Counted from the first letter of the stretch, positions 42,684 through 63,143 are shown. The stretch: DNA of 64,000 bases from Cellvibrionales bacterium (GCA_024639455.1 JAHEIH010000026.1:31279-95278); one strand, 5' to 3'. The notes: a model not told the origin generated them from the letters alone. Made by a program: numbers and translations.

Positions 42684-43100
42684 CTAGCAATCCACAATAT
42701 TTACCGGCACCTCAAGCACGTTCATGGCCAATCCACCTCGCGCCGTTTCCTTGTATTTGTTGTGCATATCCCAGCCTGTATCGCGCATGGTTTTTATGAC
42801 CTTATCGAGCGAGACAAAATGCTGACCGTCGCCACGCATGGCCATCCGCGCAGCTGAAATGGCTTTCATGGCTGCCATTGCGTTGCGCTCAATACAGGGC
42901 ACCGTGCTTTCTCCGCGTGTTTCATCGGGGCGCGCTGGTACATACCAACCCTTAATTACTTCCTCTAAGAAGCCATTACGAACAAGACGTTCTCTGTGAG
43001 TGCGCGAAAGATCGGCAGAACGTATGGCAATAGAGCCGTTCTTTTGAAGGTCGTGAAGAGCCTCTAAGGCATCAGCCAGCTTTTCGGAGGGGGTCGACAT
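42684..43100 (-). pseudogene. Chimeric ORF: N-terminus of a Fic-family protein fused in frame to the C-terminus of L-serine ammonia-lyase (SdaA)
   Basis: aa 1-66 (MSTPSEKLA...[21 protein letters not shown]...GEST) resemble the N-terminus of long Fic proteins; aa 67-138 (VPCIERNAM...[25 protein letters not shown]) are the SdaA C-terminus; junction at 42902/42903. Confidence 0.8.
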
Positions 43101-47056: not shown

Positions 47057-49708
47057 TTAGAAGTTGTAAGTCACGCGAACACCGGCCGTGCGAGGACGAG
47101 AGTATGCAACACGCTCTCTATCGTTCACGTAGTTACGAGACAGCTCTGCACGATCATCGGTCAGGTTGTCAACGTAAGCTTCGGCGGTCCACTCATTGGT
47201 GCTTACACCAGCGGTAATACCTAACATGGTCCAGCTAGCAATACGGTCACGGTTAATCGTGATGATATCGCTGTAAGATTCCGCTGAGTGCGCCATGTGT
47301 GGCATCACGTGGGCAATCATATCGCCACCAACATTCCACTCGTAGCGAGCAGACAAGTTAGCTTGGAAATCCGGCGCGAACGCCAAAGAATCGCCTTTAC
47401 GCACATCACCTGTAGGCGTAATAACATTGGTGATTTCAGTATCCAATGATGAGAATGCACCGTTGATGGTCAAACCAGGTACGCTGTCAGGCTGATAGAT
47501 GAAATCGGCTTCCAAACCCATAACCTCGGCATCAGCCGCGTTGTCCGAGAAGAACAAGTTGGTAATACTGGGGTCAAAGATAGTGGTTTGTAAGCGCGAA
47601 ATTTCTACGAAGAACACGCTACCGTTGAAACGCACTTGACCGTCAGCCAAATCAGTTTTCCAACCAAATTCGTAGTTCATCACTTCATCGGTATCGAGCT
47701 CGAAAGGTACAGTAAAGGTACCATCACCATTTGTCTTACCACCAGGGCGGTTCAACAGGCCAGGACGGTAGCCTTCAGATATCGTACCGTAGAACAACAT
47801 GTCCGCATTTGGACGGTAGTTCAACGTTGCCTTGAAGATAGTACCTTCGGCAATCGCTTTATCCGGCGCGCGCAGAGCATTGTAAATATATTGATTATCA
47901 CCGTCGTAGGTATCTATGTTGTAGGTAATCTTCTCACCGCAAGTACCGTTGTTGGTGAAGTTGCCATCGCCGTCGTAAAGATCAGAAATGTTGGTACCGT
48001 ATGAGTCGTTATCGCTACCATTACCGCCGTTACAGAATGACGAGTTAGCCGTACCGCGGAAGTCAACTTCCACGTTGTAGTATCGAGCACCCAAGGTGAC
48101 TGCCCACTCTTCATTAAGATCCGCAGTGACCTCGCCGAAGATGCCGTACTGTTTGTCGGTACGCAGTACATCATTCAGGAAGATAACCCCGTTGTTGTTT
48201 CCGTTAGCGTCAAGGTTGAAGGGATCATTCGGGTTAGAGCTGTAATCAGCACCCGCAAACGTGTAGTTGGGTAAGAATCCCAATGGTTTGGTAGCACCGG
48301 TCGGATCGTAAAACTCGTTCCACCAAGTACGCGCATTAATAGTCCCTGGGTAGGTAAAGGCGTTACGCTCTTTAAGCTCCAAGTCACTCATGAAGGCACC
48401 AGCCGTGAAGTTGGTCTTCTCGTTGAAATTGCCAGAGAAACGCAACTCGTGGGTCTGAACCTCAGTATTGGTTGAGCTATCTACGTACAGATTGGGCGCT
48501 TGACAGGTGCCGGTAGGCAGACCGCCTGGCGCATAACCGGTGTAAGTAACGAAATAGTCACAGATATAGTAAGGCAGGTATTGCCCTACGAAAAGATAAT
48601 CTGAATAGTCGATACGCTGAGTTGTTTGACGATCGGTATAAGCACCGGTGTAAACCACCTCAAGGTCATTCAACATGCCCTTCAAGGTCCAGCTCAAATT
48701 ATCGAAATCATCTTGTATTGTATTGTCAGTAAAGGTTTGAATCTCTAGATCGCCCAAATTGGGGTCAGCAAAGAAAACACCATCTGATTCAACACTTTGG
48801 GTAGCACCCGTCACCAATAAATTCCATTGGGGATTCAGGTCCATCGACAAGCCTAAGCGCGCGCCAGTGTAGGTCACGTCGTTAAGATTCTCGCCAACCA
48901 ATGCACTGTTGTCCGCATCGATAAATGTGACGTTGCTTAAATCAGCACCTGCCTGGAAACCCGCGCGCGCTGGATCAACAGCGACACCGTTAGAACGAAC
49001 GGTACCTGCCGCACGGAAGCGAGCACTTTCAGAGGCATTTCGTGTGGCTTGAACGTTATCGATATAACCGCCTTTATGGTCACGGTAGGCCACGGTACGC
49101 AAAGCGACGGTATCGCTCAGCGGCGCGTTATACATAAATTCAAAGTTGTTGCTGGGATCACCTGATGAGGTGGTCGCCAAACCAGCTTTGATCTTACCGT
49201 ATGTACCAGTGTGATCGGGCTTGTTGGTAATCAAACGCACAGTACCTGCCTGTGAGCTCGCACCGAATAGCGTACCCTGAGGACCAGACAATACTTCCAC
49301 ACGGCTTAAGTCAGCCGCGTATACGTCAAGGTTACGACCGGGCTGACCGAGAGGCTGCTCGTCTAAGTAAAGTGCAACGTTAGGTGCCAAACCCGCCACA
49401 CCAGCAGTGGTCAAGTTTGGTGTGGTAGATGCAATACCACGGATGTAAATGGTGTTTTGACCAGGACCAGCACCACCAGCGGTAACGCCGGGTAGCTGGA
49501 TTAGGTAATCTTCAAAGTTTGAGATACCCATTTGGTCGAGTTTTTGTTCTGTCACTGCTGATACAGTCACAGGAATATCTTGGGTTGATGCTGTACGTTT
49601 GGTTGCTGTAACGACAACCTCTTCAATCGCTGCCATTGATTGCCCGGCTGCCATAGCAGCAGATACTGCTACAACTGCACTAGCGAGATGTTTCTTTTGA
49701 ATATTCAT
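47057..49708 (-). CDS. TonB-dependent receptor
   Basis: IEEVVVTATKR, VEVLSGPQGTLFGASS, EGYRPG, NYEFGWKT, RPRTAGVRVTYNF. Confidence 0.92.
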   Translation of the reverse strand: MNIQKKHLASAVVAVSAAMAAGQSMAAIEEVVVTATKRTASTQDIPVTVSAVTEQKLDQMGISNFEDYLIQLPGVTAGGAGPGQNTIYIRGIASTTPNLTTAGVAGLAPNVALYLDEQPLGQPGRNLDVYAADLSRVEVLSGPQGTLFGASSQAGTVRLITNKPDHTGTYGKIKAGLATTSSGDPSNNFEFMYNAPLSDTVALRTVAYRDHKGGYIDNVQATRNASESARFRAAGTVRSNGVAVDPARAGFQAGADLSNVTFIDADNSALVGENLNDVTYTGARLGLSMDLNPQWNLLVTGATQSVESDGVFFADPNLGDLEIQTFTDNTIQDDFDNLSWTLKGMLNDLEVVYTGAYTDRQTTQRIDYSDYLFVGQYLPYYICDYFVTYTGYAPGGLPTGTCQAPNLYVDSSTNTEVQTHELRFSGNFNEKTNFTAGAFMSDLELKERNAFTYPGTINARTWWNEFYDPTGATKPLGFLPNYTFAGADYSSNPNDPFNLDANGNNNGVIFLNDVLRTDKQYGIFGEVTADLNEEWAVTLGARYYNVEVDFRGTANSSFCNGGNGSDNDSYGTNISDLYDGDGNFTNNGTCGEKITYNIDTYDGDNQYIYNALRAPDKAIAEGTIFKATLNYRPNADMLFYGTISEGYRPGLLNRPGGKTNGDGTFTVPFELDTDEVMNYEFGWKTDLADGQVRFNGSVFFVEISRLQTTIFDPSITNLFFSDNAADAEVMGLEADFIYQPDSVPGLTINGAFSSLDTEITNVITPTGDVRKGDSLAFAPDFQANLSARYEWNVGGDMIAHVMPHMAHSAESYSDIITINRDRIASWTMLGITAGVSTNEWTAEAYVDNLTDDRAELSRNYVNDRERVAYSRPRTAGVRVTYNF

Positions 49709-49898: not shown

Positions 49899-51446
49899 TT
49901 AGAGCCTCTCATTAAATCCAGCGTCGGCTGGAATTTCACTTTCACGCTTTGATATAAAGTCGCGTAATTTTTGATCAATCTCCGGATCAAGCGACGGTTG
50001 CTGATACTCTGTTAGCAAGAATTTGGCCGCCGCCAATGATCGCGTTTCGAGGTCTTTTTCGCCGTCGAACTCCCACTGGGCGAAAAGTTGACCGTCGAAG
50101 TGCTCGGGCATGAAAAAGGCTTGTTTGAAATTTTCCATTGTGTGGGGATGCTCGAAATAGCGTCCCGATGGGCCGACGTCGCGCACCGCGACCAACGCCT
50201 CATCAAAATTATCCCAATTGGGACCAGAGGCCATTTTATAGGCCATAGCACACTGCTCCGCATCGGCCATAAATTTGGCCACCGAACACAGCAGGCCCGA
50301 TTCTGCCCAACCGGCGGCCTGCCAAATAAAATTAGCGCCGGCGTGCATCACCGACATGAGCGTCGAAGCCCCCTCGTAACCCGCTTGTGCGTCCAATGTT
50401 TTTGCTGCACTTAACGCCCCAGAGGAACGGAAGGGAACTGAATAATGGCGCGCCATTTGCGCCAGCATGTAATTCATCAGCGATGTTTCAGGGGTGCCGA
50501 CGAATGGCATACCTGTTTTCATCGATACAGTGGACAAGTAGGCACCGTAAATCGCCGGCGCACCCTTACGCACCAATTGGGTATACGCTAAACCCGAGAG
50601 GGTTTCAGCATTGATCTGTGCCACCGAAGCTGGCACCGACGCTGGTGTATTGGCGCCGCCCAAGGTAAACGGCGTACATAACACAGGTTGTCGGCGCGAC
50701 ACATAGGCACGCAGCGCCGAGGTCATGGTGGTGTCCCACACCAACGGCGACGTGCCTGAGATATTAGCCACCGTGACCGCGTGGTTTTCCAGAAAATCCT
50801 CGCCGAACAAGATATCGCACATCGCCAGAACATCTTCAGCGTTTTTACCAGAACTGGTCATCCCCATAAACATCTTGTCTGAGTGGACCATGGACGAATA
50901 GGTAATGTGTAAATGGCGATGGGCTACAGGGATGTCGCTGGGATCGACGATGTGATGTCCGGTAGAGTGCATGCTCGGTAACATGTGCGCCAACTTGTGG
51001 AACATAGCCAAATCATCAAGCGTTGCTATTCGGCGCTGATTGTTAAGATCGCGCACATAGCTGGCACCCGACATCGGCACAAATACGGCCTTGTTGTCGC
51101 CAACGGCTAGATTATACGCGGGGTTTCGCGCGGTAAAGGCGATTTCCGATGGGAGGCTAGCGAGCAGTTCACGCAATAAATGGCGATCAATATACACGCG
51201 CTGATCGACCACCTTGGCGCCGGCACGCCGCCAATCATCACGTGCCACCGGGTCGCGGAAGGTCACACCGACATTTTCCAAAATGGCCATAGATGCCTCG
51301 TCGATACGGGCAATCTGGTCAACGTTCATGACGGCTACCGGGGGTAGCACGTTGTTCAATGTGGGTAGCATGGGCGCGAGCTTTGATGATCGACTAGCGA
51401 TTCGCTCTTGTCGTGCGCCTCGTCTACGCAATTGTCCTTTGGCCAT
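49899..51446 (-). CDS. Trimethylamine methyltransferase (MttB) superfamily, non-pyrrolysine, divergent paralog
   Basis: SDKMFMG, SPLVWD, GTPETS, FRSSGALSAAKTLDAQAGYE, GANFIWQAAGW, VGPSGRYF; no in-frame TAG. Confidence 0.88.
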   Translation of the reverse strand: MAKGQLRRRGARQERIASRSSKLAPMLPTLNNVLPPVAVMNVDQIARIDEASMAILENVGVTFRDPVARDDWRRAGAKVVDQRVYIDRHLLRELLASLPSEIAFTARNPAYNLAVGDNKAVFVPMSGASYVRDLNNQRRIATLDDLAMFHKLAHMLPSMHSTGHHIVDPSDIPVAHRHLHITYSSMVHSDKMFMGMTSSGKNAEDVLAMCDILFGEDFLENHAVTVANISGTSPLVWDTTMTSALRAYVSRRQPVLCTPFTLGGANTPASVPASVAQINAETLSGLAYTQLVRKGAPAIYGAYLSTVSMKTGMPFVGTPETSLMNYMLAQMARHYSVPFRSSGALSAAKTLDAQAGYEGASTLMSVMHAGANFIWQAAGWAESGLLCSVAKFMADAEQCAMAYKMASGPNWDNFDEALVAVRDVGPSGRYFEHPHTMENFKQAFFMPEHFDGQLFAQWEFDGEKDLETRSLAAAKFLLTEYQQPSLDPEIDQKLRDFISKRESEIPADAGFNERL

Positions 51447-51471
51447 CGGAGAGTTTTACCTTGTTATTTTT

Positions 51472-51528
51472 TCAAAAAAAACCGATGAGTTTTTGAGGTT
51501 AGTGCTGTCTCAAAAAGTCACCGGTTGT
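51472..51528 (-). terminator. Long hairpin with U-tract between fhs and the second mttB-family gene
   Basis: Minus strand AACCGGTGACTTTTTGAG...CTCAAAAACTCATCGGTT TTTTT. Confidence 0.6.
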
Positions 51529-51558
51529 TTCATCCTCTATGCCGAGGTTTTCGTTTGC

Positions 51559-53250
51559 TTAGAACAGGCCTTCGATATGGCCGTCCTGGTTAACGAAAAT
51601 ACGTTCAGCGGTGGGCACACGAGGCAGACCAGGCATAGTCATGACGTCACCACAGATCACTACCACGAAACCTGCACCGGCTGACAAACGAACATCACGG
51701 ATAGGCACCACGTGGTCAACCGGGGCACCGTAGAGATTGGGATCCGTACTAAACGACAACGGGGTCTTCGCGATACACACAGGCAGATGCCCGAACTCTT
51801 CTTGCAGTGTGGCAATTTGATCGCGGACTTTTTTGTCAGCGATGATGTCGTTAGCACCATACAGCTCAGTCGCGATGGTTTTTACCTTGTCCCACAGGCT
51901 CACGTCGTCGCTGTACAAGGGGCGGAAATTATCTTCGCCTTTCTCGATCACGGCAATCACTTCGCGCGCTAGATCTTCAGCACCTTCACCACCCATAGCC
52001 CAGTGATCAGACATGATAGCTTTCGCGCCAATCTGCTCACACAATTCTTTCAACATGGCGATTTCAGCATCGGTATCGGCGCTGAAACGGTTGATGGCAA
52101 CCACCACCGGCACACCGAATTTACGGGTGTTTTTCACGTGGCGAGCAATGTTAGCAAAACCTTTACGAACGGCTTCAACGTTCTCGGTTTTGAGCTCTTC
52201 GAGGGCAGCACCACCGTGCATTTTCAGCGCACGAATAGTACCCACAATGACCGCTGCATTTGGCTTCAAGCCAGACTTGCGCATTTTGATGTTGAAAAAC
52301 TTCTCTGCACCCAGGTCGGCACCAAAGCCTGCTTCAGTTACTACGTAGTCAGCCAGTTTCAAGGCGGTAGAGGTCGCCAACACTGAGTTACAGCCGTGCG
52401 CGATGTTCGCGAAAGGACCGCCGTGAACGAATGCTGGCGTGCCTTCCAAGGTCTGTACCAAGTTGGGCTGGATAGCGTCTTTCAACAGCGCAGTCATCGC
52501 GCCTTCAGCATTCAATTCGCGCGCGTAGATGGCTTTCTGATCGCGGGTGTAACCGATCACAATGTTGCCCAAACGCTGCTGCAAGTCTTCCAGGCTGGTT
52601 GCCAAACAGAAAATCGCCATAACCTCAGAAGCCACGGTGATATCGAAGCCATCAGTGCGTGGGTAGCCGTTACCAATACCCCCCAAGCTGTTAGTGATTT
52701 GACGCAGGGCGCGGTCGTTCATATCCACCACACGACGCCAGCTCACACGACGCACATCGATACCCAGATCGTTGCCCCAGTAAATGTGGTTATCGATCAT
52801 GGCAGACAACAAGTTGTGCGCTGCACCGATGGCATGGAAGTCGCCGGTAAAGTGCAGGTTAATGTCTTCCATTGGAATGACTTGAGAGTAACCACCCCCA
52901 GCAGCACCACCTTTGATACCAAAGCAAGGACCGAGCGAAGGCTCGCGCAAGCAAATGGCAGTTTTCTTACCCAAACGCGACAGTGCATCGCCCAAGCCCA
53001 CAGTGGTGGTGGTTTTACCTTCACCCGCTTTGGTGGGGTTGATACCAGCAACCAAAATCAACTTGCCATCTTGGCGGTCTTTCAGGCCATTGATGTAGTC
53101 GAGGCTAATTTTCGCCTTATGGTGTCCGTAGGGCTGCAGATCGTCATAGCCCAAGTCAAGTTTAGCGGCGACTTCGGCAATGGGGCGAATCTGGGCTTCG
53201 CGTGCAATTTCGATATCCTGCTTAGGATTCTTGTGTTGTGAGGCTGGCAT
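51559..53250 (-). CDS. fhs: Formate--tetrahydrofolate ligase
   Basis: [67 protein letters not shown]. Confidence 0.97.
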
Positions 53251-53274
53251 CTTAGTGACTCCTTAAAACCATTA

Positions 53275-55365
53275 TTATTTTGCTGAACGACGGCGTCTGC
53301 CGCGGACAGCATTAGTGTTAGCCGAACTTGAGCTGCGACGGTCAGCTAGACCGGGAATCGCCGCTTCAAGTTTGGGGAAGGGATCGGTGCTGTGGGGGAA
53401 TCCCATAGCGCCTACAAAATGGGCTTGGAACGAGGCTTCTGTCGCGGTTTCGATCTTTTCAATACGGCGGATCACCGGCTCGACTTCGTTGCGAGCGTGG
53501 CGATTGATCAACGCAATGCGGGCGCCTTCTCCAGCGGCATTACCGACGCCTCCGACATTGGCGAGGTCACAATCGGGGATCATTCCAAGTAGCATCGCGT
53601 ATTTGACATCGATACGGCTGCCAAAAGCACCCGCCAGTTTGATGCGCTCAACGTTTTCACTACCAAACTTATCCATCAACAAGCGTATGCCAGCATATAA
53701 AGCCGCCTTGGCCAATTGGATGGCACGCACGTCATTTTGAGTAATCTTTAAGGTGCGCGTTCCTTGGTATAACACGTAGCTGTACGTGCGACCGTCTTGA
53801 ATCACGCGCGGTGAAGGTCTGTCATCCTGCGGCTTAATCACACCATCGCGGTTGATAATGCCAGCGAGGAACATCTCACCAATAATTTCGATAATACCGG
53901 AACCACAAATACCGCTGATCTGAAGGCTTGACGATGACATTTCAAAGGTAGGGTCATTCGACCACGGGTCACAACCGATAACTTTGAAGGCCGGGTCCAG
54001 CGTCATGCGATCGATGCGCACGCGCTCAATGGCGCCCACTGCGGCGCGCTGGCCGCAGCTAATTTGTGCGCCTTCGAATGCAGGCCCGGTGGGGCTAGAC
54101 GCCGCCAGCATACGATTGCGATTGCCCAACACGATTTCGGCATTGGTACCCACGTCGACAATCAAGGTCAACTCATCTGACTGGTCTGGGCGCTCTGACA
54201 ACACCACGCCCGCAGCGTCAGCACCAATGTGACCAGCCAAGCAAGGCAGTAAGAAAATACGCGCTGCATCGTGCAGCGGAATATCGAGTTCCGCAGCGCT
54301 GACTTCCATCGCTTGATCAACCGCCAAGTTAAACGGTGCACCACCCAATGGCACAGGGTCAAGGCCTAGCAGAATGTGGTGCATGATGGGGTTACAAACG
54401 ATCACCACATCCATCACGTCGCTAGCTTTCAACCACGCCTGCGTCGCCGCTTCTTTGATCAAATCGGCAATGCGCTGACGGACAACTTTGCTCATTTCCT
54501 CGGCGCCGCCCTCATTCATCATCGCGTAGGACACGCGACTCATGAGGTCTTCACCAAATTTAATTTGTGGATTCATCGCCGAGGCTGAGGCAAGCACCTT
54601 ACCATCGCTCAGGTCTGCCAAGTGAGCGACGATACTGGTAGAACCCAAATCGATAGCACACCCATAAGCCTTAGCTTCGTGGCCGGGCCAAATGGCAACG
54701 ATTTGCGGAGGCTTGCGCACTGAGTTGAAGATCGCCACGCTGACTTTCATCGACGTGTCCGGCGTTTTCTTCATATGCTCGGTAACCATAGCTTGCAGAT
54801 GTCTCACCATGGACAGTTCATACCACAACCCAGTGAGATCATTATTAGACTGCAAATCTGTCACCAAGCGGCTCATATCTGCGTGGGGGACATCCATAAT
54901 GGGCGCTGGTATATAGGCGGTAAAAACCGACACTGCGGGTGCCAAGTCAATATCGCGATCTTCAATCGCCTTAGCAATATCCTGTTCATGCGACTGGCTA
55001 CTGGCGGGAATTTCGATCACAACATCGTTCATGATCTTAGCGGTACAACCCAAGCGAGCACCGAGTTGTCGCTCGTCCCCTACACGCCCCGCTTCCACTT
55101 CTTTAAATTCTGACAAACTGTCATGGGTCGAATTCACCCCATATTTGGGGAAGTCGCCCACTACGTGGTAGACCTTGCACGTGCCGCAAATACCTTGGCC
55201 ACCGCAGACTGACTCTACGTCAACACCCAAGCGACGAGCTGCCCGTAAAACGGGCATACCCTCAGGTACCTCGCCTCGGATACCCGAGGGGGTAAAAATC
55301 ACTTTGACGTTTTTCAGGTTCTTCGCACGGCGAGACCTGCGTGAGACCAAGGTTGATTCGCTCAT
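53275..55365 (-). CDS. Reductive activator of corrinoid proteins (RACE/RamA-like; N-terminal 2Fe-2S + ASKHA ATPase)
   Basis: CGGQGICGTC..RLGC, DLGSTS, NPQIKFGEDLMSR, DVGTNAE, GPAFEG, GICGSG, LAGAFG, GNAA. Confidence 0.9.
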   Translation of the reverse strand: MSESTLVSRRSRRAKNLKNVKVIFTPSGIRGEVPEGMPVLRAARRLGVDVESVCGGQGICGTCKVYHVVGDFPKYGVNSTHDSLSEFKEVEAGRVGDERQLGARLGCTAKIMNDVVIEIPASSQSHEQDIAKAIEDRDIDLAPAVSVFTAYIPAPIMDVPHADMSRLVTDLQSNNDLTGLWYELSMVRHLQAMVTEHMKKTPDTSMKVSVAIFNSVRKPPQIVAIWPGHEAKAYGCAIDLGSTSIVAHLADLSDGKVLASASAMNPQIKFGEDLMSRVSYAMMNEGGAEEMSKVVRQRIADLIKEAATQAWLKASDVMDVVIVCNPIMHHILLGLDPVPLGGAPFNLAVDQAMEVSAAELDIPLHDAARIFLLPCLAGHIGADAAGVVLSERPDQSDELTLIVDVGTNAEIVLGNRNRMLAASSPTGPAFEGAQISCGQRAAVGAIERVRIDRMTLDPAFKVIGCDPWSNDPTFEMSSSSLQISGICGSGIIEIIGEMFLAGIINRDGVIKPQDDRPSPRVIQDGRTYSYVLYQGTRTLKITQNDVRAIQLAKAALYAGIRLLMDKFGSENVERIKLAGAFGSRIDVKYAMLLGMIPDCDLANVGGVGNAAGEGARIALINRHARNEVEPVIRRIEKIETATEASFQAHFVGAMGFPHSTDPFPKLEAAIPGLADRRSSSSANTNAVRGRRRRSAK

Positions 55366-55372
55366 AGTGAAC

Positions 55373-57886
55373 TTATGCTCTCAGTTTCGCGTTTTGGGCA
55401 TCGTAAGGTGATTCTTCAATCACGGTCGCCTGGTAGAGTTCGCCCAGGATTTCGATCTGCAATGCGGTGCCAATGGCAGCATATTCTGGCGCCACCAAAC
55501 CCAGTGCCAGTGACTTTTCAACACGCCACCCGTAACCACCCGAGGTGGCCCGGCCAACCAGTTCGCCGTCTTTGTAGATCGCTTCTGAACCGCGCGCATC
55601 CGCGTCGGTTACACCATGGACTTCTAGGGTAACGAAAGCATTTTTGAAGCCGCGCTCCTGCCACGCTTTCAGGCCTTCTTTTCCGATGAAGTCGCACTCC
55701 TTGTCGAGGCGAACGAATCGGTCAAGACCCGACTCGAGCGCTGAGTACTCGATCGACATTTCGCGAGGAATCAAACGGTAAGATTTTTCTAGGCGCATAC
55801 AATCCATGGCGCGGATACCGAAGGGTTTGATATCAAACTCTGCACCGGCCTTCATCAGCTCATCAAAGATGTAGTTTTGCATCTCCATGGGGTGGTGCAA
55901 TTCCCAGCCCAATTCGCCGACAAAGTTTACGCGTAACGCGTGTGCTTGGGCGTAGCCAACGTTGATGAACTTGCCGCTCAACCATGGGAAATTGGGGTTG
56001 CTCAAATCAGTGTCGGTAATCTTCTGCAGCACGTCGCGCGCCTTGGGACCCGCCAGCACCAGCACGCCCATCTGCGTGGTGATCAACTGTAGGTCTACGC
56101 TGCCATCGGTGGGCTTAAGCTTGTGCAGGTAATCAAAATCATGGGTTTCGAAAGCGCCAGCAGATACTAAGTAATATTTATTGGCAGCCATCTTGTAGAC
56201 AGTGAATTCAGCACGCACACCGCCAGAGTTAGTCAGCATATGACACAGACCTACGCGACCCACTTTCTTAGGAATAGTGTTCGCCAAAATAGATTCCAAC
56301 CACGCTTCAGCACCGGGGCCGGTAACCATGGTTTTGGCAAAGGCCGACATATCTAACAGACCAACTTTCTCGGCTACGTGCTTACACTCGTTGCCGACAA
56401 ACTCGAAGTAGTTAGAGCGACGGAAAGAGTTTTTCTCGACGATACGGCCATCTTCTAGCGGCGCGGAGTGGTTCTTTTTCCACAATACATCCGCCATGTT
56501 GAGATCTTCTTCGCTCAACGAGTAATCTTTGGGGGCAAACCAGTTGGGGCGCTCCCAACCATATACCGAACCAAAGACGGCACCGAGCTCTTTCATGCGG
56601 TCGTAGCATGGGGTAGTTCTCAGAGGACGCGCAGATGAACGCTCTTCATCGGGATAGTGCGTGGTAAATACGTTGCGGTAGGCTTCTTCGTTCTTGTCGC
56701 GCAGGTAGCCACGTGATGCATACGGGCCAAAGCGACGTGGATCCACGCCCATCATGTCAACGGTAGGCTCACCATCTACAATCCACTCGGCCAACTGCCA
56801 ACCGGCACCACCGGCAGCGGTGATGCCAAAGCTGTGGCCTTCATTCAACCAGAAGTTTTTCAGACCTGGCGCGGGACCAACGATGGGGTTACCATCCGGG
56901 GTGTAAGCGATCGCACCGTTGTATACGTACTTCACACCCACATCACCAAAGGCAGGCACGCGCTCCATACATTTTTCGATGTGCGGCATCAAGCGGTCGA
57001 GTTCTTCGTTGAACAGCTCCCATTCGCAATGTTCACCGGGGCCATCGACATAACATACCGGCGCACCTTGCTCGTAGGGACCTAACAGAAGACCACCCGC
57101 CTCTTCGCGCAGGTAGTAACCAGAATCTGATTCACGCAGCACGCCCATCTCGGGCTCACCGCGCGCTTGACGCGCTTTAATTTCGGGGTGTGGCTCAGTC
57201 ACGATAAACTGGTGCTCTACGGGAATCACAGGCACATCAAGGCCAACCATTTCACCCGTCTTGCGTGCAAAGCTACCGGTACATGACACCACGTGTTCAC
57301 ACACGATATCGCCCTTGTCGGTGCATACCTTCCACATACCATCAGCTTGCTGCTCAATGCTCAACACCGTGGTGAAGCGGTGGATTTTTGCACCCATATT
57401 GCGGGCACCCGTGGCCAATGCCTGGGTCAGATCCGCCGGTTGAATGTAGCCATCTTCAGGGTGCTGGATCGCACCAAGCAAGCCTTCGGTTTCGCACAGC
57501 GGCCAAATTTCTTTCACTTGCTCTGGTGTCAAGAAATTAACATCAACGCCCACAGTTTTGGCCACGCCGCTGTAATACTTGTACTCGTCCATGCGGTATT
57601 CGCAGTTGGCTAAGCGGATGTTACTCACCTTGCTCAAGCCAACGTTCTTACCGGTTTCTTTCTCGAGTTCTTGGTAGAAGTCCACAGAATACTGGTGCAA
57701 CTTGCCTACCGAGTAGCTCATGTTAAACAGGGGCAGCAATCCGGCGGCGTGCCAAGTAGAGCCAGAAGTCAGCTCTTTACGCTCGATCAGAACGCAATCT
57801 GACCAACCTTTTTTAGCTAAGTGATAAAGGGTACCTACACCCACTACACCACCACCAATCACGACTACGCGAGCTGTTGATTCCAC
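55373..57886 (-). CDS. Dimethylglycine dehydrogenase-like flavoprotein (DAO + GcvT domains)
   Basis: IGGGVVG, LTSGSTWHAAG, YTPDGNP, GWERPNWF, GELGWELH, RLEKSY; GTG start at 57886 after AGGAG. Confidence 0.88.
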   Translation of the reverse strand: MESTARVVVIGGGVVGVGTLYHLAKKGWSDCVLIERKELTSGSTWHAAGLLPLFNMSYSVGKLHQYSVDFYQELEKETGKNVGLSKVSNIRLANCEYRMDEYKYYSGVAKTVGVDVNFLTPEQVKEIWPLCETEGLLGAIQHPEDGYIQPADLTQALATGARNMGAKIHRFTTVLSIEQQADGMWKVCTDKGDIVCEHVVSCTGSFARKTGEMVGLDVPVIPVEHQFIVTEPHPEIKARQARGEPEMGVLRESDSGYYLREEAGGLLLGPYEQGAPVCYVDGPGEHCEWELFNEELDRLMPHIEKCMERVPAFGDVGVKYVYNGAIAYTPDGNPIVGPAPGLKNFWLNEGHSFGITAAGGAGWQLAEWIVDGEPTVDMMGVDPRRFGPYASRGYLRDKNEEAYRNVFTTHYPDEERSSARPLRTTPCYDRMKELGAVFGSVYGWERPNWFAPKDYSLSEEDLNMADVLWKKNHSAPLEDGRIVEKNSFRRSNYFEFVGNECKHVAEKVGLLDMSAFAKTMVTGPGAEAWLESILANTIPKKVGRVGLCHMLTNSGGVRAEFTVYKMAANKYYLVSAGAFETHDFDYLHKLKPTDGSVDLQLITTQMGVLVLAGPKARDVLQKITDTDLSNPNFPWLSGKFINVGYAQAHALRVNFVGELGWELHHPMEMQNYIFDELMKAGAEFDIKPFGIRAMDCMRLEKSYRLIPREMSIEYSALESGLDRFVRLDKECDFIGKEGLKAWQERGFKNAFVTLEVHGVTDADARGSEAIYKDGELVGRATSGGYGWRVEKSLALGLVAPEYAAIGTALQIEILGELYQATVIEESPYDAQNAKLRA

Positions 57887-57990
57887 AATGACACTCCTAA
57901 TATGAATTCGAATTATGGGCGCACAAATACGCCTAATTATCATTTTGGCAAGAGTCTACCGATGCAGCTCAAACGCGTACTATGTTAATT

Positions 57991-58068
57991 GCGACAGGCA
58001 AGTACTCATTTACGACAGCGGCTATTTCCCTATTTTTTTTATGGCGCGTTGAGACAACTGTATGTCGC
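57991..58068. promoter_or_regulatory. Two oppositely oriented GbdR-like boxes (TGTCGY-N15-TGTCGC) in the divergent promoter
   Basis: GCGACA (57991) / ACGACA (58012) facing the dehydrogenase; TGGCGC (58042) / TGTCGC (58063) facing mtgB; 21-bp period. Confidence 0.6.
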
Positions 58069-58151
58069 GAAGGAAAAGGGTGCGCGAGGAAAGTCCATGC
58101 AATATAACAGCGATAAAAAGTCTAACCCTATCTATCGTTGAGAACTGAATT

Positions 58152-59720
58152 ATGACTGATGCAGCAACCAATGTACGTCGCGGTGGTCGCCGCGCCGGTG
58201 GACGAGCCGATCGCAGAGCAGCAGCCGGTGAAGCAGTAATCGCTCCCGCTTATTTGACGCGTAAAATCCCTACTTTCAGCATTCTAAACGAGGAAGGCCT
58301 AGCCCAGATCGAACACAATGCCGATACCATCTTGGAAGAAATTGGTATTGAGTTCCGCGACGACCCTGAGTCACTGGACATACTAAAAAACGCCGGCTGT
58401 GACGTAGTTGGTGAACGGGTTAAATTTCCCCGTGGCATGTGCCGCCAGATCATTCAAGCATCGGCACCGCGCGAATACACCCAACATGCACGCAACCCAG
58501 CGCGCAGTGTAAAAATCGGTGGCGACAACACCGTTTTCGTACCCGCTTACGGCTCACCTTTCGTTTACGACATCGAGCAAGGCCGTCGTTACGCCACCAT
58601 TAAAGACTTCGAAAACTTTGTAAAACTGGCCTATATGTCTCCCGGCCTTCACCACTCGGGCGGCACCGTGTGCGAACCCGTTGACTTGCCGGTTAACAAG
58701 CGTCACTTTGACATGCTTTACAGCCACATGAAGTATTCAGACAAAGCGTTTATGGGCTCGGTTACAGCACCCTCTCGCGCACAAGACTCGGTCGACATGT
58801 GTAAGATTTTGTTTGGTGATGATTACTTGGATCCTGCCACTGGCAAGCCCAAGACCTTCATGACTAGCCTGATCAACGCTAACTCGCCTATGACTTTCGA
58901 CGACACCATGCTCGGCGCCGCCAAGGTATTCGCGCGCACCAACCAAGCCTGTATCATCACCCCCTTCATTTTGGCCGGCGCCATGTCACCGGTGACCGTA
59001 GCCGGCACAGCGGCGCAATCATTGGCCGAAGCCATGGCTGGAATGACTTTGGTGCAGCTGGTCAACCCCGGTGCTCCTGTCATTATGGGCAGCTTCGCCA
59101 GTTCGATTTCTATGCAGTCTGGCGCCCCCACTTTCGGTACCCCCGAGCCCGCCATGGTACTTTACGTAATGGCTGAACTAGCACGCCGCCTGGGCGTACC
59201 TTTCCGCTCTGGCGGTAGCCTGTGTGGCTCTAAACTACCCGACGCACAAGCCGCTAGCGAAGCCGCCAATACCTTAATTCCCACCACGTTAGCTGGTGTG
59301 AACTTTGTACTTCACACCGCTGGTTGGTTAGAGGGTGGTCTGGCAATGGGTTACGAGAAATTCATCATGGATGCTGACCAAGCAGCGATGATGGCTGTGC
59401 AATTGGCCGGTGTCGATATATCTGAAAACGGCCAAGCAATGGACGCCATTCGCGAAGTGGGTCCAGGTAGCCACTTCTTAGGTTGCGCCCATACTCAAGC
59501 CAACTTTAAAACAGCCTTCTACCGCTCAGCCATTACTGACAACAATAGCTATGAACAATGGGCATCAGAAGGCAGCAAAGATATGGCGACTCGATCCTAC
59601 GAGCGCTGGAATAGCATGTTAAATTCTTACGAAGCACCCGCGCTTGACGAAGCCACCGATGAGGCTCTGCTGGACTTTATCAGTCGTCGCAAATCGGAAA
59701 TGCCCGACGCAACCCATTAA
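58152..59720 (+). CDS. mtgB: Non-pyrrolysine MttB-family methyltransferase, probable glycine betaine:corrinoid methyltransferase (MtgB-like)
   Basis: PAYGSPFV, HHSGGTVCEPVD, SDKAFMGSVT, INANSP, SGAPTFGTPE, PFRSGGSLCGSKLPDAQA, HTAGWLEGGL, VGPGSHFLG. Confidence 0.85.
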   Translation: MTDAATNVRRGGRRAGGRADRRAAAGEAVIAPAYLTRKIPTFSILNEEGLAQIEHNADTILEEIGIEFRDDPESLDILKNAGCDVVGERVKFPRGMCRQIIQASAPREYTQHARNPARSVKIGGDNTVFVPAYGSPFVYDIEQGRRYATIKDFENFVKLAYMSPGLHHSGGTVCEPVDLPVNKRHFDMLYSHMKYSDKAFMGSVTAPSRAQDSVDMCKILFGDDYLDPATGKPKTFMTSLINANSPMTFDDTMLGAAKVFARTNQACIITPFILAGAMSPVTVAGTAAQSLAEAMAGMTLVQLVNPGAPVIMGSFASSISMQSGAPTFGTPEPAMVLYVMAELARRLGVPFRSGGSLCGSKLPDAQAASEAANTLIPTTLAGVNFVLHTAGWLEGGLAMGYEKFIMDADQAAMMAVQLAGVDISENGQAMDAIREVGPGSHFLGCAHTQANFKTAFYRSAITDNNSYEQWASEGSKDMATRSYERWNSMLNSYEAPALDEATDEALLDFISRRKSEMPDATH

Positions 59721-59735
59721 TAAATCTCTTTCATG

Positions 59736-59760
59736 AAACGGCCTAACGGCCGTTTTTTTT
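59736..59760 (+). terminator. Rho-independent terminator after mtgB
   Basis: AAACGGCC taac GGCCGTTT TTTTT. Confidence 0.85.
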
Positions 59761-59850
59761 CGCATTTTCAAAGACCTGTTACAAAACATAAGATTGACCA
59801 AATAATATTATTGGTTTAAAACGCAACTATATTTTGAAGCGTCGATTCAT

Positions 59851-60825
59851 ATGCTTAACATAAAAACTGAAACCATTAAGATAGGTTTTTTATTGCTCGA
59901 TGAGTTCACTATGATGGCATTTACCGCCGCCATTGAACCATTGCGTATGGCTAACCGCCTACTGGAACGTGATCAATACACGTGGGACCTTATCACCCAG
60001 AACGGTGAATTATGCCGAGCCAGCAACGGCATCGCTGTTCAAGCCGATCACGGCTTGGTGAATATGCCTGCGCTAGACTACTTGTTTGTTTGCGGTGGCA
60101 TTAATGTGCAAGACAAGTACAACGCCAACCTCGCTAGCACACTGACTAAAATCGCCAAATCCAAAACTATTTTGGGCGGCGTTTGCACAGGCAGTTACAT
60201 CCTGGCAAAAACGGGTTTGTTAAACGGTTATCGCGCCGCCATCCACTGGGAAAACCTCGCCAGTACCCGTGAAGAATTTCCCTCCATCAATGTGGTAGAA
60301 GATATCTTTGTCTTCGACAAAAACCGCTACACCAGCGCCGGCGGTGTGGCAGCGATGGACATGATGCTGCACGTGATCAGCATGACCATGGGAAACACCC
60401 TGGCTACCAATATTTCAGAACAGTTTTTGTTGTCGCGCATCCGTGACCGCGAGGACCAGCAGCGCACCCCGCTACACATAAAACTCGGCCCTAACCAACC
60501 TAAATTGACCGAAGCTGTGTCGCTAATGGAAGCCAACATTGAAGAACCCATTGGGCTAGAAGAATTATCGTCGCTAGTGGGTATATCTAGACGCCAACTG
60601 GAACGCCTGTTTCAAAAGTACTTGCACTGCGTACCAACTCGATACTATATGGAATTGCGCCTGAAGCGGGCACGTTTGCTACTGCTGCAGACCGACAAAC
60701 CGGTGATCGACATCGCGCTAGCTTGTGGCTTCATTTCTGCCACCCATTTCAGCAAATGCTATCGCGATTTTTATAGTATTCCACCCAGCGGAGCTAGACG
60801 CCAAAAATTAAAGGCCTTGCACTAA
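59851..60825 (+). CDS. gbdR: GlxA/GbdR-family AraC regulator (DJ-1/PfpI + AraC)
   Basis: AIEPLRMANR, GGVCTGSY, IHWEN, QPKLTEAVSLMEANIEEP, SRRQLERLF, ACGF..ATHFSKCYR; located in a betaine cluster. Confidence 0.8.
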   Translation: MLNIKTETIKIGFLLLDEFTMMAFTAAIEPLRMANRLLERDQYTWDLITQNGELCRASNGIAVQADHGLVNMPALDYLFVCGGINVQDKYNANLASTLTKIAKSKTILGGVCTGSYILAKTGLLNGYRAAIHWENLASTREEFPSINVVEDIFVFDKNRYTSAGGVAAMDMMLHVISMTMGNTLATNISEQFLLSRIRDREDQQRTPLHIKLGPNQPKLTEAVSLMEANIEEPIGLEELSSLVGISRRQLERLFQKYLHCVPTRYYMELRLKRARLLLLQTDKPVIDIALACGFISATHFSKCYRDFYSIPPSGARRQKLKALH

Positions 60826-60847
60826 GCTAGTAGCGCAAGGCCTTTAT
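60809..60847. terminator. Bidirectional hairpin between the convergent regulator and methyltransferase genes
   Basis: TAAAGGCCTTGC...GCAAGGCCTTTA inverted repeat overlapping the regulator stop. Confidence 0.65.
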
Positions 60848-60870
60848 GTAGAGCTCAATTCAATCGCGAA

Positions 60871-61776
60871 TTAGCTACTGCGACGACGTCCGCTAGTTCG
60901 ACGGCCACGTGCACCAGCCTCACCTGCAGCAGGCGCCTCACGGAAACGCTTGATCCAATTAACGCAATCGGGGTCGCGCCCCATCATCACGTCCGCACCT
61001 AACGTGGCGCTGATAATTTCCTTGTGCATGGGGTTGGCAATCGCCGACGTCATACCCGCGTGAATCGCCATACTTAAGAAAGCACCATTCACACCGTCGC
61101 GGTTGGGTAGACCAAAGCTGATATTTGAGGCACCACAAGTGGTGTTTACTTTCAATTCGGTACGTAAACGGTGGATCAATTTCATCGCTTGCAAGCCAGC
61201 GGTATTAATAGCACCCACAGGCATCACCAGCGGATCAACCACGACATCACACGCGGGAATACCGTAGTCAGCGGCGCGGTTAACGATCTTTTTCGCTACT
61301 TCGAAACGCACATTGGGGTCTTCAGAAATACCTGTTTCGTCGTTCGAAATCGCTACCACAGCAGCGCCGTATTTCTTAACCAGCGGCAGTACTCGCTCCA
61401 TTTGCTCATCTTCGCCGGTCACTGAGTTCACCAGCGCTTTGCCTTTGTAAACCGCCAAGCCAGCGGCTAGCGCCTCGACAATCGATGAGTCGATAGCCAG
61501 CGGGGTATCGGTCAGCGACTGCACTAACTGAATGGTTTCAGCCAAAATCTTGGGCTCGTCGGCCAGAGGAATACCAGCGTTGACGTCTAACATGTGCGCA
61601 CCCGCTTCAACCTGTGCTAAAGCGTCAGCTTTCACTCGGCTGTAATCGCCATTCTTCATCTCTTCTGCGAGAAGTTTACGGCCGGTGGGATTGATGCGCT
61701 CACCAATAATTACGAAGGGGCGCTCGAAGCCCATCACGACTTCTTTGGTAGCTGAACTTAAAATTGTGTCAGTCAT
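60871..61776 (-). CDS. Methyltetrahydrofolate:corrinoid methyltransferase (pterin-binding; MtgD/MetH-domain-like)
   Basis: IIGERINPTGRK, LDVNAG, IDSS, VNSVTGE, VDPLVMP, GASNISFGLPNR. Confidence 0.9.
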   Translation of the reverse strand: MTDTILSSATKEVVMGFERPFVIIGERINPTGRKLLAEEMKNGDYSRVKADALAQVEAGAHMLDVNAGIPLADEPKILAETIQLVQSLTDTPLAIDSSIVEALAAGLAVYKGKALVNSVTGEDEQMERVLPLVKKYGAAVVAISNDETGISEDPNVRFEVAKKIVNRAADYGIPACDVVVDPLVMPVGAINTAGLQAMKLIHRLRTELKVNTTCGASNISFGLPNRDGVNGAFLSMAIHAGMTSAIANPMHKEIISATLGADVMMGRDPDCVNWIKRFREAPAAGEAGARGRRTSGRRRSS

Positions 61777-61806
61777 TGTTATAGTGTCTCCATCAGAAGA
61801 AAGTCA

Positions 61807-62427
61807 TTAACGATGCGCCGCGTCGACAAAACGCACGATCGATGTCGCCATGTCGCCGATACCGGTAAAGCGGTACTCGTACGACAAACCTAACTCTTCA
61901 GCCGCTGCCTGTGCCGCCTGCTGTAGCTCACAATCTTCCGTCTGAGCTAAATAGACGAGCTTTTTGTAGTGACCAAAAAACATCGGTTTTAGGGCGGGCT
62001 TTTTATCCAGCCCGAGCCCTCTAATCACCAGGCGATCGAAATGCCGCGCCAGGAAATCCGTTAAATAAAAGGTGCCAAGTTCGTCTTCATGCATCGCATT
62101 GAAGGACTCATCACCGGCAAAAAATTGGTAGCAGTGGGCGCCGGGGATGCGATCGACATCTTCCTCGGCTAGCAACCGGTCCAACATGCCACCTGTACCA
62201 CAGTCGCCATAGGCGACAAAAACCTCAGCGCCACGCGCTTTTGCTCGATCAATACTTTCGCTAACCGCGTCAGTAATGAGATCGGGGCGGTTGTGCAACT
62301 CCGCGGTGATAGCGTCGACACTGACGTGCGACCAATGGTTGAGCTTTTTCAACGCGTTGATTTCTTTCAACAGCGCCGAACAAGCCACAATGACTATCTC
62401 AGCGGGTGGCGCGGCATCCGCCCCCAT
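61807..62427 (-). CDS. DUF1638 family protein
   Basis: IVACSAL, LHNRPDLI, YGDCGTGG, GAHCY, TFYLTDFL, HYKKLVYLAQ. Confidence 0.8.
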   Translation of the reverse strand: MGADAAPPAEIVIVACSALLKEINALKKLNHWSHVSVDAITAELHNRPDLITDAVSESIDRAKARGAEVFVAYGDCGTGGMLDRLLAEEDVDRIPGAHCYQFFAGDESFNAMHEDELGTFYLTDFLARHFDRLVIRGLGLDKKPALKPMFFGHYKKLVYLAQTEDCELQQAAQAAAEELGLSYEYRFTGIGDMATSIVRFVDAAHR

Positions 62428-62435
62428 GACTGGTC

Positions 62436-63143
62436 CTAAGCCGCGCGACGCGTGGCGATCAGGTCTTTCGCCATATCGACAGCAACACCAGCGTCGCGGC
62501 AGTAAGCATCGGCGCCAACGGCCATACCAAACTCTTCGTTCAGAGGCGCACCACCCACCATGACGATGTAGTCATCGCGAACGCCTTTCTCAACCATAGT
62601 GTCGATAACGACCTTCATGTACGGCATAGTAGTGGTCAGCAACGCTGACATGCCGAGGATGTCGGGCTTGTGCTCTTCAAGTGCATCAAGGTATTGCTCG
62701 ACAGGTACGTTGATGCCGATATCGATAACTTCGAAGCCAGCACCTTCCATCATCATTGACACCAAGTTTTTACCGATGTCGTGGATGTCGCCTTTAACCG
62801 TGCCGATAACCATTTTTCCGATCGACTCAGCGCCAGTTTCGGTCAAGATGGGACGCAAAATTGCCATACCCGCTTTCATGGCGTTAGCCGCACACAGTAC
62901 TTCGGGCACGAACAGAATGCCGTCGCGGAAGTCGACGCCCACGATAGCCATGCCAGCAACCAGTGCGTCAGACAACACCTTGTCAGCTCCCCAACCGCGA
63001 TCTAACAGAATCTGAGTGCCTTCAGCAATTTCATCTTCAAGACCGTTATAGAGATCGTCGAACATCTGCTCAACCAGCTCTTCATCGTTGAGTTCGTTGA
63101 GGTCGAGGAAATCATCATCGTAATTATCGTCTTGGCCTGTCAT
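62436..63143 (-). CDS. Cobalamin (corrinoid)-binding methyl-carrier protein (MtgC-like)
   Basis: FVPEVL, GTVKGDIHDIGKNLV (DxHxxG), MSALLTTT, VGGAP; start MTGQDD after GGAGG. Confidence 0.92.
   Translation of the reverse strand: MTGQDDNYDDDFLDLNELNDEELVEQMFDDLYNGLEDEIAEGTQILLDRGWGADKVLSDALVAGMAIVGVDFRDGILFVPEVLCAANAMKAGMAILRPILTETGAESIGKMVIGTVKGDIHDIGKNLVSMMMEGAGFEVIDIGINVPVEQYLDALEEHKPDILGMSALLTTTMPYMKVVIDTMVEKGVRDDYIVMVGGAPLNEEFGMAVGADAYCRDAGVAVDMAKDLIATRRAA

Follow-up and report, generated by a model that had tools for sequence, protein, structure and literature searches.

Arginine-rich termini on the partners of an acidic corrinoid carrier: a candidate electrostatic tether in an aerobic methyltransferase cluster

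Introduction

The closest described relatives of the gene cluster analyzed here are the MtgBCD system, known from genetic work on Ruegeria pomeroyi (Mausz et al. 2025, PMC12478193), and the split methionine synthase of Phaeobacter inhibens, whose parts include the carrier, MtgD, the activase and the DUF1638 protein (Price et al. 2018, PMC5764234). In abundant marine bacteria, glycine-betaine demethylation and methionine synthesis are reported to proceed to a major extent through MtgC-based systems (PMC12478193). The present analysis concerns a stretch of 64,000 nucleotides, referred to as the window, from a Cellvibrionales bacterium (GCA_024639455.1, JAHEIH010000026.1:31279-95278), in which positions 49,899 to 63,143 carry a cluster of this kind. 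A sequence-only reading of the window had drawn attention to Arg-rich tails on the predicted catalytic partners (clients) of the corrinoid carrier MtgC and to the very acidic beginning of the carrier itself. It is argued here that the Arg tails and the acidic handle of MtgC would act together as an electrostatic tether, a reading that is given somewhat better than an even chance and whose physical binding and kinetic benefit we infer from the distribution and build of the two elements.

The locus has the same gene set and domain families as the Ruegeria/Phaeobacter MtgBCD(E) system, again with a BCCT transporter, a dimethylglycine dehydrogenase, SoxB and Fhs encoded close by, and its carrier shares 74-77% identity with the carriers of Ruegeria, Leisingera, Epibacterium and Salipiger loci. 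It differs from that system in that MetH is of full length and the stand-alone homocysteine methyltransferase MtgE is missing, so that the split methionine synthase arm is not encountered: in the whole genome the sole PF02574 match lies inside a MetH frame of 1241 aa (contig C15:216010-219930, L081), which coexists with MtgC, MtgD, the activase and DUF1638. An unexplained coexistence of MetH with the same parts was pointed out earlier for Sinorhizobium (Price et al. 2018, PMC5764234). Since MetH is present and MtgE absent, the system probably serves demethylation alone here.

The pairing of Arg tails with an acidic carrier start is apparently undescribed. The word 'arginine' is absent from the main texts of PMC12478193, PMC5764234, bioRxiv 10.64898/2025.12.19.695462 and PMC12366255 and occurs in three supplements of PMC12478193 in protein names only, while a literature search on arginine-rich ends in corrinoid-protein methyltransferase systems returned nothing relevant.

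Charged termini in the window

The Arg-rich and acidic peptides quoted in the sequence-only reading are all present in the translated open reading frames (ORFs), at the positions listed in Table 1. MtgC has a net charge of -29 and an isoelectric point of 4.05, with -13 falling within the first 30 residues; the DUF1638 protein carries -12, and the cores of MtgD, the activase and MtgB carry -8, -20 and -11, respectively. In AlphaFold2 models of MtgC and MtgD, made from 53-sequence alignments, the predicted local distance difference test score (pLDDT) is below 50 for residues 1-11 of MtgC, whose first helix spans residues 20-32, and for residues 287-301 of MtgD, within a coil formed by residues 281-301; the mean pLDDT of the folded parts is 86.5 and 90.3. 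The tail-bearing ends and the acidic start are accordingly described as predicted to be disordered.

Charged ends of this type were not found in the translated ORFs of Fhs, DUF1638 and the partial SoxB, in agreement with what had been read from the sequence. The dimethylglycine dehydrogenase (DMGDH), which had also been listed as tail-less, has an ORF that begins (57872-57943, -) with MIIRRICAPIIRIHIRS, an Ile/Arg-rich stretch, 24 residues upstream of the DAO domain; this stretch is probably an over-long start call and not a tail. That the tails are not twin-arginine translocation (Tat) signals had likewise been asserted and is borne out. A Tat signal consists of an N-terminal S/T-R-R-x-F-L-K motif followed by a hydrophobic stretch of 12-20 residues and a cleavage site; here, two tails out of four sit at the C-terminus, those at the N-terminus pass into the conserved soluble core with no uncharged hydrophobic stretch in between, and the homologues are crystallised cytoplasmic enzymes.

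Ends of this composition are rare in the genome. The 2.88-Mb genome yields 2296 crude ORFs of 150 aa or more; with a threshold of at least five Arg in a 12-residue window near the terminus, 16 N-termini and 17 C-termini qualify, and the only comparable C-tail elsewhere belongs to a 449-aa ORF with eight Arg in its final twelve residues. The chance of four Arg-rich ends among nine adjacent genes is P ~5e-6 per cluster and 1e-3 genome-wide, the latter figure becoming 0.045 when the two MttB enzymes are counted as one family. Conservation provides a stronger argument than these rarity figures.

Conservation of the tails and of the acidic start

A carrier search of a species-level genome collection yielded 597 relatives, of which the best 80 loci were taken (74-82% carrier identity); they come from Gamma-, Beta- and Alphaproteobacteria and from Actinomycetota and range from 43 to 75% guanine plus cytosine (GC). 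A protein homologue search with the carrier gave near-orthologs only. The acidic start was found in 81/81 carriers, where a median of 23 residues precedes the invariant DDLY and comprises 9 acidic and 0 basic residues (medians); L15 and L18 of the MtgC extension are invariant. On the client side, an Arg-rich C-end characterizes 52/52 complete MtgD genes and 49/49 activases, and an Arg-rich N-end 23/26 MtgB, the exceptions being one gene cut by a contig end and two that are Arg-rich but below the threshold. Orthologs of the second MttB share the motif R-x-R-x-G-G-R-x-A-R-R-x-x-R in 75 of the 80 cases; one of the five others is truncated, and four have an in-frame motif upstream of the start chosen by rule. 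Arg-rich C-ends occur in 3% of 69 DUF1638 homologues and in 1% of carriers. The activase had been credited with tails at both ends: the C-terminal one stands, but the N-terminal run is idiosyncratic, recurring in only 2/52 homologues, both of them possibly over-extended ORFs.

The tails share a common build, namely a flexible spacer, an Arg cluster of ~10 residues and then ~2 residues to the end of the protein. For MtgD, the median tail has 23 aa with an Ala/Gly/Pro-rich spacer of 9 and a cluster span of 11, and for the activase 32 aa with a spacer of 20. Arg is five-fold enriched over the cores and largely excludes Lys (367 R versus 21 K in MtgD tails, 334 R versus 38 K in activase tails), which gives R/(R+K) ratios of 0.95 and 0.90, as compared with 0.59 and 0.72 in the respective cores. 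The ratio still amounts to 0.88-0.89 where the GC content of the locus does not exceed 53%, so that a composition artefact was rejected as the origin of the tails; it is Arg and not Lys that is selected.

Additional tail bearers were found in loci of the clade to which the window's carrier belongs (the main clade). Of eleven matches to stand-alone MtgE near a carrier gene, ten end in an Arg cluster, the eleventh being partial and probably unrelated. Eleven more distant MttB paralogs were also found, nine of them with N-terminal tails. The two without, together with a third paralog, end in GGRRGRRGRRRRG-type C-terminal tails, and with three more from Chloroflexota a total of six MttB paralogs have a C-terminal Arg cluster in place of the N-tail. 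The tail is thus position-independent, occurring at either terminus of a client. These C-tailed paralogs (L244, L245, L247, L018, L032, L041) form a subfamily of ~507 aa whose genes adjoin the carrier gene; they are 22-29% identical to the window enzymes and start directly at the core (MI.(S/T)FA.LLS..).

When all ORFs of the loci were clustered all against all and clusters of at least six members considered, only the MtgD and MtgE clusters reached 100% Arg-rich C-ends; the other high-scoring Arg-rich clusters, on inspection, were wrong-frame ORFs of high-GC DNA. A search of the 80 loci for additional tagged families gave 32 unassigned ORFs with at least five Arg in the last 15 residues, all of which look like wrong-frame high-GC ORFs.

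Loci in which both elements are missing

A representative search at 50% identity brought up a sister clade of 18 loci (L162-L178, L230) in Actinomycetota and Caldilineaceae, with an operon of MtgB, carrier, MtgD, activase and DUF1638 as in the main clade. Sister carriers are 45-51% identical to the window's and begin MT(P/K)EE(I/L)L..LYDETL.GN; none of 16 has five or more acidic residues before the equivalent of DDLY (median 2), and to the 13 acidic residues among the first 34 of the window's MtgC correspond 4 in the sister-clade equivalent. Tails are absent from MtgD (0/15), the activase (0/15) and the N-terminus of MtgB (0/13). Sister carriers start at the equivalent of window residue ~18-20 and sister MtgB at query residue 33-39; since several of the sister-clade genes start or stop precisely at the folded domain, mis-called ends are not the cause of the missing tails. 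The charge of the carrier core is alike in both clades (median -14 in the main clade versus -11), and therefore the difference between them resides in the extension. Ten of 13 sister MtgB exceed the Arg threshold at the C-end, but this signal comes from a conserved family helix, YVxRRRAELGD (FISRRKSEM in the window), and was rejected as a tail. In one sister locus (L164:9663-12524), MtgD-like and activase-like frames run on as a single ORF of 953 aa, which could be a true fusion or else an artefact of the assembly or of a frameshift.

Solved structures of anaerobic homologues tell the same story. MtgB of D. hafniense (2qne) and 9yce begin at query residue 34-39, after the Arg extension of the window protein, MeTr and MtgA structures end at MtgD query residue 279-280, the activator RACo (3zyy) ends at residue 665, and the corrinoid proteins 1y80, 7xcn_M, 3ezx and 4jgi start at MtgC query residue 19-26. 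The MtgB-type structure 4yyc retains an Arg-rich N-end; a literature search on it found no paper. The remaining loci of the scan, mostly anaerobic, contain 18/18 MtrH-like proteins fused to a corrinoid domain and devoid of a tail, and tails are found there in 0/3 activases and 0/2 MttB. In these MtrH-corrinoid fusions (L185-L208; Clostridia, Synergistota and relatives), the corrinoid domain is C-terminal and the arrangement is a covalent version of the MtgD-MtgC pair.

Tails and acidic start are therefore present together, in the main clade, or absent together, in the sister clade and in anaerobic and fused forms. This distribution supports the view that the tails are a conserved tag, borne by just those proteins that have to dock on the corrinoid protein, with exceptions among MtgE of Chloroflexota. 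The sequence-only reading had suggested comparing homologous clusters of aerobes and anaerobes: the tails do go with the acidic start, but Actinomycetota and Caldilineaceae are mostly aerobic groups and the split is therefore not one of aerobes versus anaerobes. The rationale offered at the same time, that tethering possibly limits the exposure of Co(I) to O2, gains no support.

The same distribution makes it highly improbable that both elements are low-complexity sequence without a function, left over for instance as linker remnants of gene fission or produced by a composition effect. Both are disordered and variable in exact sequence, and in fused MetH a short linker connects the folate and cap domains at the corresponding position, as such an origin would have it; however, neutral remnants would hardly be kept in all the MtgD and activase homologues counted above, across three proteobacterial classes and Actinomycetota of very different GC content, nor would they show the five-fold Arg enrichment or recur at either terminus of MttB paralogs, and the high-GC genomes of the sister clade do without them.

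Evolutionary history, charge co-variation and alternative explanations

In the carrier tree, the main clade (99% support; the window's MtgC lies within it, with loci of the roseobacter group) and the sister clade (100%) each form one group. In a FastTree phylogeny of 76 MttB rows, the tail-less sister MtgB (100% support) stand among tailed lineages; the N-terminal, C-terminal and no-tail states require at least five changes, and the tail-less rows three. A tree uniting all tail-less MttB rows was rejected in a 41-row IQ-TREE subset (difference in log-likelihood, lnL, 34.2; approximately unbiased (AU) test, p 0.0006). Within the MttB family, the tail state follows the type of carrier and not the MttB tree. 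Over 53 paired loci, the negative charge of the carrier start and the positive charge of the MtgD tail are correlated (Spearman rho 0.52; independent contrasts r 0.40, p 0.003), as are the charges of the carrier extension and of the MtgB N-tail (r 0.45, p 0.03, 23 tips). Charges of the client cores move the opposite way, the cores being more acidic where the carrier extension is more acidic, and the tails stand out by this contrast.

A series of results weighs against a tether. Since the main and sister clades are each a single group, the co-occurrence of the features of carrier, MtgD and activase amounts essentially to one evolutionary split. The group put to the AU test was named after the first tree had been seen, and one long branch is involved. 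The charge of the activase tail is not correlated with that of the carrier extension (r 0.15, p 0.30), an independent-pairs test of extension versus tail charge had only 4 supported pairs, and the acidity of DUF1638 correlates with the MtgD tail as well (r 0.33, p 0.02), so that a shared driver, for instance overall proteome acidity, could produce the co-variation. In Chloroflexota, with carriers 60-70% identical to the window's, the acidic start is weaker (median 5.5 acidic residues; five or more in 19/26) while the partners MtgD (10/10), activase (15/16) and MtgB (6/6) are fully tailed; MtgE has a tail there in only 6/13 cases, and the seven tail-less ones adjoin the carrier gene. Lastly, an extreme preference for Arg is equally typical of binders of RNA or phosphate.

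Consequently, tail strength is not a simple function of the charge of the extension, and charge co-variation, which had been considered as a proof of the receptor, was dropped in this capacity because DUF1638 correlates too and the activase tail does not; it is suggestive but not specific. The original statement that all partners are tailed goes too far: 7 of 13 MtgE of Chloroflexota are without a tail, and the N-terminal run of the activase is idiosyncratic. In these tail-less cases (L243, L244, L247, L250, L251, L263, L292), the MtgE gene lies directly downstream of the carrier gene and the protein ends at the folded domain.

The resemblance to RNA binders opens a different account, in which the tails bind a third-party polyanion (RNA, the nucleoid, polyphosphate or an anionic membrane) and so bring the clients together at one site or in a condensate; the carrier's acidic start would then be an adaptation of its own or a releasing competitor. 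The high R/(R+K) values and the frequent RGG/RRGGR-like strings do recall the Arg-rich tails of nucleic-acid-binding proteins, and the one comparable C-tail elsewhere in the genome, on the 449-aa ORF, also counts in favour of this account. Yet this account leaves the joint appearance and disappearance of acidic start and tails without explanation, would have the very acidic carrier repelled by the polyanion, and finds no hydrophobic or amphipathic membrane-binding element visible in the ORFs; it is considered distinctly unlikely.

Charge measurements bear on two more proposals, both of which keep the tails within the system. One is that the tails act in cis and lie against the acidic surface of the enzyme that bears them, where they serve charge balance, solubility or auto-inhibition until displaced on arrival of the carrier. 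It is attractive in that all client cores are net negative, and the more so where the carrier extension is more acidic; but enzymes of the same folds in the sister clade and in anaerobes manage without tails, and a pure cis role predicts no matching change in the carrier, which leaves it a slim probability. The other makes another acidic protein of the system the docking partner in place of MtgC, for example DUF1638 as a scaffold. This protein is genetically required along with the activase in Phaeobacter, no function being assigned to it there (PMC5764234), and its acidity co-varies with the MtgD tail. Against this stands its presence in the tail-less sister operons (37-45% identity), where it is the N-terminus of the carrier that changes along with the tails. 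A scaffold occurring both with and without tails is therefore not favoured, and a docking role for DUF1638 is regarded as very unlikely; of the two targets originally contemplated for the tethering, the carrier or a shared scaffold, it is the acidic start of the carrier that tracks the tails. As a whole, these alternatives explain the joint gain and loss of the two elements less well than a tether does.

Proposed mechanism and implications

In the tether thus favoured, MtgC is the hub carrier to which either MttB-family enzyme, MtgD and, once it is oxidised, the activase have to come in turn. Each client bears a spacer, predicted to be disordered, and an Arg cluster at whichever terminus is free, while MtgC bears a disordered acidic run that passes into the first helix of the cap domain, itself acidic. 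The Arg cluster would bind this handle weakly and in a non-stereospecific manner, raising the encounter rate and the local concentration of the client and so achieving without covalent bonds what linkers do in fused methionine synthase; the folded domains would then dock as in other corrinoid systems. Such a tether is in keeping with a carrier for which several clients compete, the genes of these clients often lying at separate loci, as in R. pomeroyi (PMC12478193).

A more far-reaching version, which is thought unlikely, would make spacer plus Arg cluster a portable address tag admitting any bearer, tagged at either end, to MtgC. The cap domain shields the cobalt and has the acidic handle as its N-terminus; on docking, a client would use the handle to pull the cap off, so that the cobalt would be uncovered only with a tagged client in place. 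Among competing clients (several MtgB paralogs, MtgE, MtgD and the activase), tail strength would set the ranking.

More generally, a conserved and transferable charge tag would be a simple answer to the problem of how separate proteins make efficient use of a single oxygen-sensitive B12 carrier when cellular abundance is low. It would also supply a sequence rule by which the methyltransferase paralogs that use MtgC could be predicted, and a handle in the engineering of split B12 enzymes. The sister clade offers natural tail-less controls and swap partners.

Gene cluster and genomic context

The segment 49899-63314 comprises nine genes (Table 1), and a partial gene for sarcosine oxidase beta (SoxB) begins at the window end. 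Pfam confirms the identity of each gene of the cluster, which on its domain content is identified as an aerobic MtgB/MtgC/MtgD glycine-betaine demethylase with a RamA-type activase and DUF1638. Glycine betaine is the inferred substrate, given the 437-bit matches of MtgB to solved glycine betaine methyltransferases and the BCCT, DMGDH and SoxB neighbours.

Table 1. Position in the window of the genes of the cluster and of the charged termini of their products
Feature	Position	Strand	Remarks
Second MttB-family methyltransferase	49899..51446	-	515 aa; Pfam MTTB, 629 bits
N-terminal Arg-rich extension of second MttB, residues 1-25 (protein start MAKGQLRRRGARQER)	51372..51446	-	
Formate-tetrahydrofolate ligase (Fhs)	51559..53250	-	Without tail
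RamA/RACo-type reductive activase of corrinoid enzymes	53275..55365	-	696 aa; Pfam Fer2, RACo_linker, Raco_middle, RACo_C_ter
C-terminal tail of activase, residues 666-696, end VRGRRRRSAK	53278..53370	-	
N-terminal SRRSRRAK run of activase (VSRRSRRAK)	55321..55344	-	Not a conserved part of the system
Dimethylglycine-dehydrogenase-type enzyme (DAO + GCV_T)	55373..57943	-	Without tail
mtgB, MttB-family (non-pyrrolysine) glycine-betaine-type methyltransferase	58152..59720	+	522 aa; Pfam MTTB, 767 bits
N-terminal Arg-rich extension of MtgB, residues 1-33 (protein start MTDAATNVRRGGRRAGGRADRR)	58152..58250	+	Arg cluster at residues 9-22
GlxA-type AraC regulator (DJ-1/PfpI + HTH_18)	59851..60825	+	Without tail; Pfam
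mtgD, pterin-binding methyl-tetrahydrofolate:corrinoid methyltransferase	60871..61776	-	301 aa; Pfam Pterin_bind PF00809
C-terminal tail of MtgD, residues 281-301, APAAGEAGARGRRTSGRRRSS (protein end ARGRRTSGRRRSS)	60874..60936	-	Ala/Gly/Pro spacer, then Arg cluster
DUF1638 protein	61807..62427	-	Without tail; Pfam PF07796
mtgC, corrinoid (B12) carrier	62436..63143	-	235 aa; Pfam B12-binding_2 (PF02607) + B12-binding (PF02310)
Acidic N-terminal extension of MtgC, residues 1-19, MTGQDDNYDDDFLDLNELN (protein start MTGQDDNYDDDFLDLNELNDEELVEQMFDD)	63087..63143	-	

The ATG at position 63143, which GGAGG precedes by 8 nt, is the start of mtgC. In 53 sequences the carrier's DxHxxG motif (D119-H121-G124) is invariant. 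Both MttB ORFs (522 and 515 aa) are uninterrupted, have no in-frame amber (pyrrolysine) codon and match PF06253 end to end. Among structures in the PDB, MtgB matches 4yyc with 730 bits and 2qne and 9yce with 436-437 bits, 3zyy covers residues 20-665 of the activase, and the folate domains of MeTr, MtgA and MetH cover residues 13-292 of MtgD at most; MtgD shares 59-86% identity with 52 homologues from MtgC loci. The genome (51.7% GC, 99.5% complete) contains in total two MttB genes, one activase, one DUF1638 and two cap-domain proteins, MetH and MtgC.

Just upstream of the cluster, a betaine/choline/carnitine transporter (BCCT) gene lies between two genes for TonB-dependent receptors (40388-42619, +; 44972-46936, +; 47057-49708, -). 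Speculatively, TonB receptors beside a B12-dependent pathway might serve corrinoid uptake. The match of a 138-aa ORF at 42684-43100 (-) to the serine dehydratase alpha-chain model is confined to the model's last 65 positions; the ORF is possibly a gene fragment.

Comparison with known systems

The sister-clade operons have the same gene order and families but lack the acidic start and every tail. Also comparable are the anaerobic three-component systems, represented by MtgB (2qne) and MtgA (4o0q) of D. hafniense, MttB/MttC of M. barkeri (7xcl/7xcn), MeTr of Moorella and C. hydrogenoformans (1f6y/2yci) and RACo (3zyy), which share with the window the same folds and the same logic of MT1, carrier and MT2 plus activase. 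Their chains, in contrast, are bounded by the folded domains and have neither Arg tails nor an acidic extension; they are crystallised constructs, whose native ends are deduced from chain lengths. Fused MetH possesses homologous folate, cap and B12 modules, and its carrier also visits several active sites in turn, but its modules are covalently joined, a linkage for which the pair of tail and handle would be a non-covalent substitute.

Outside corrinoid biochemistry, acidic hub carriers read by basic surfaces of their partners are exemplified by helix II of the acyl carrier protein and by the acidic C-terminal tip of SSB. There, likewise, one small acidic protein or peptide serves many clients through electrostatics. 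These two systems use a folded basic patch, whereas in the MtgC system the basic element would be the disordered tail of the client and the acidic element the N-terminal extension of the B12 cap domain.

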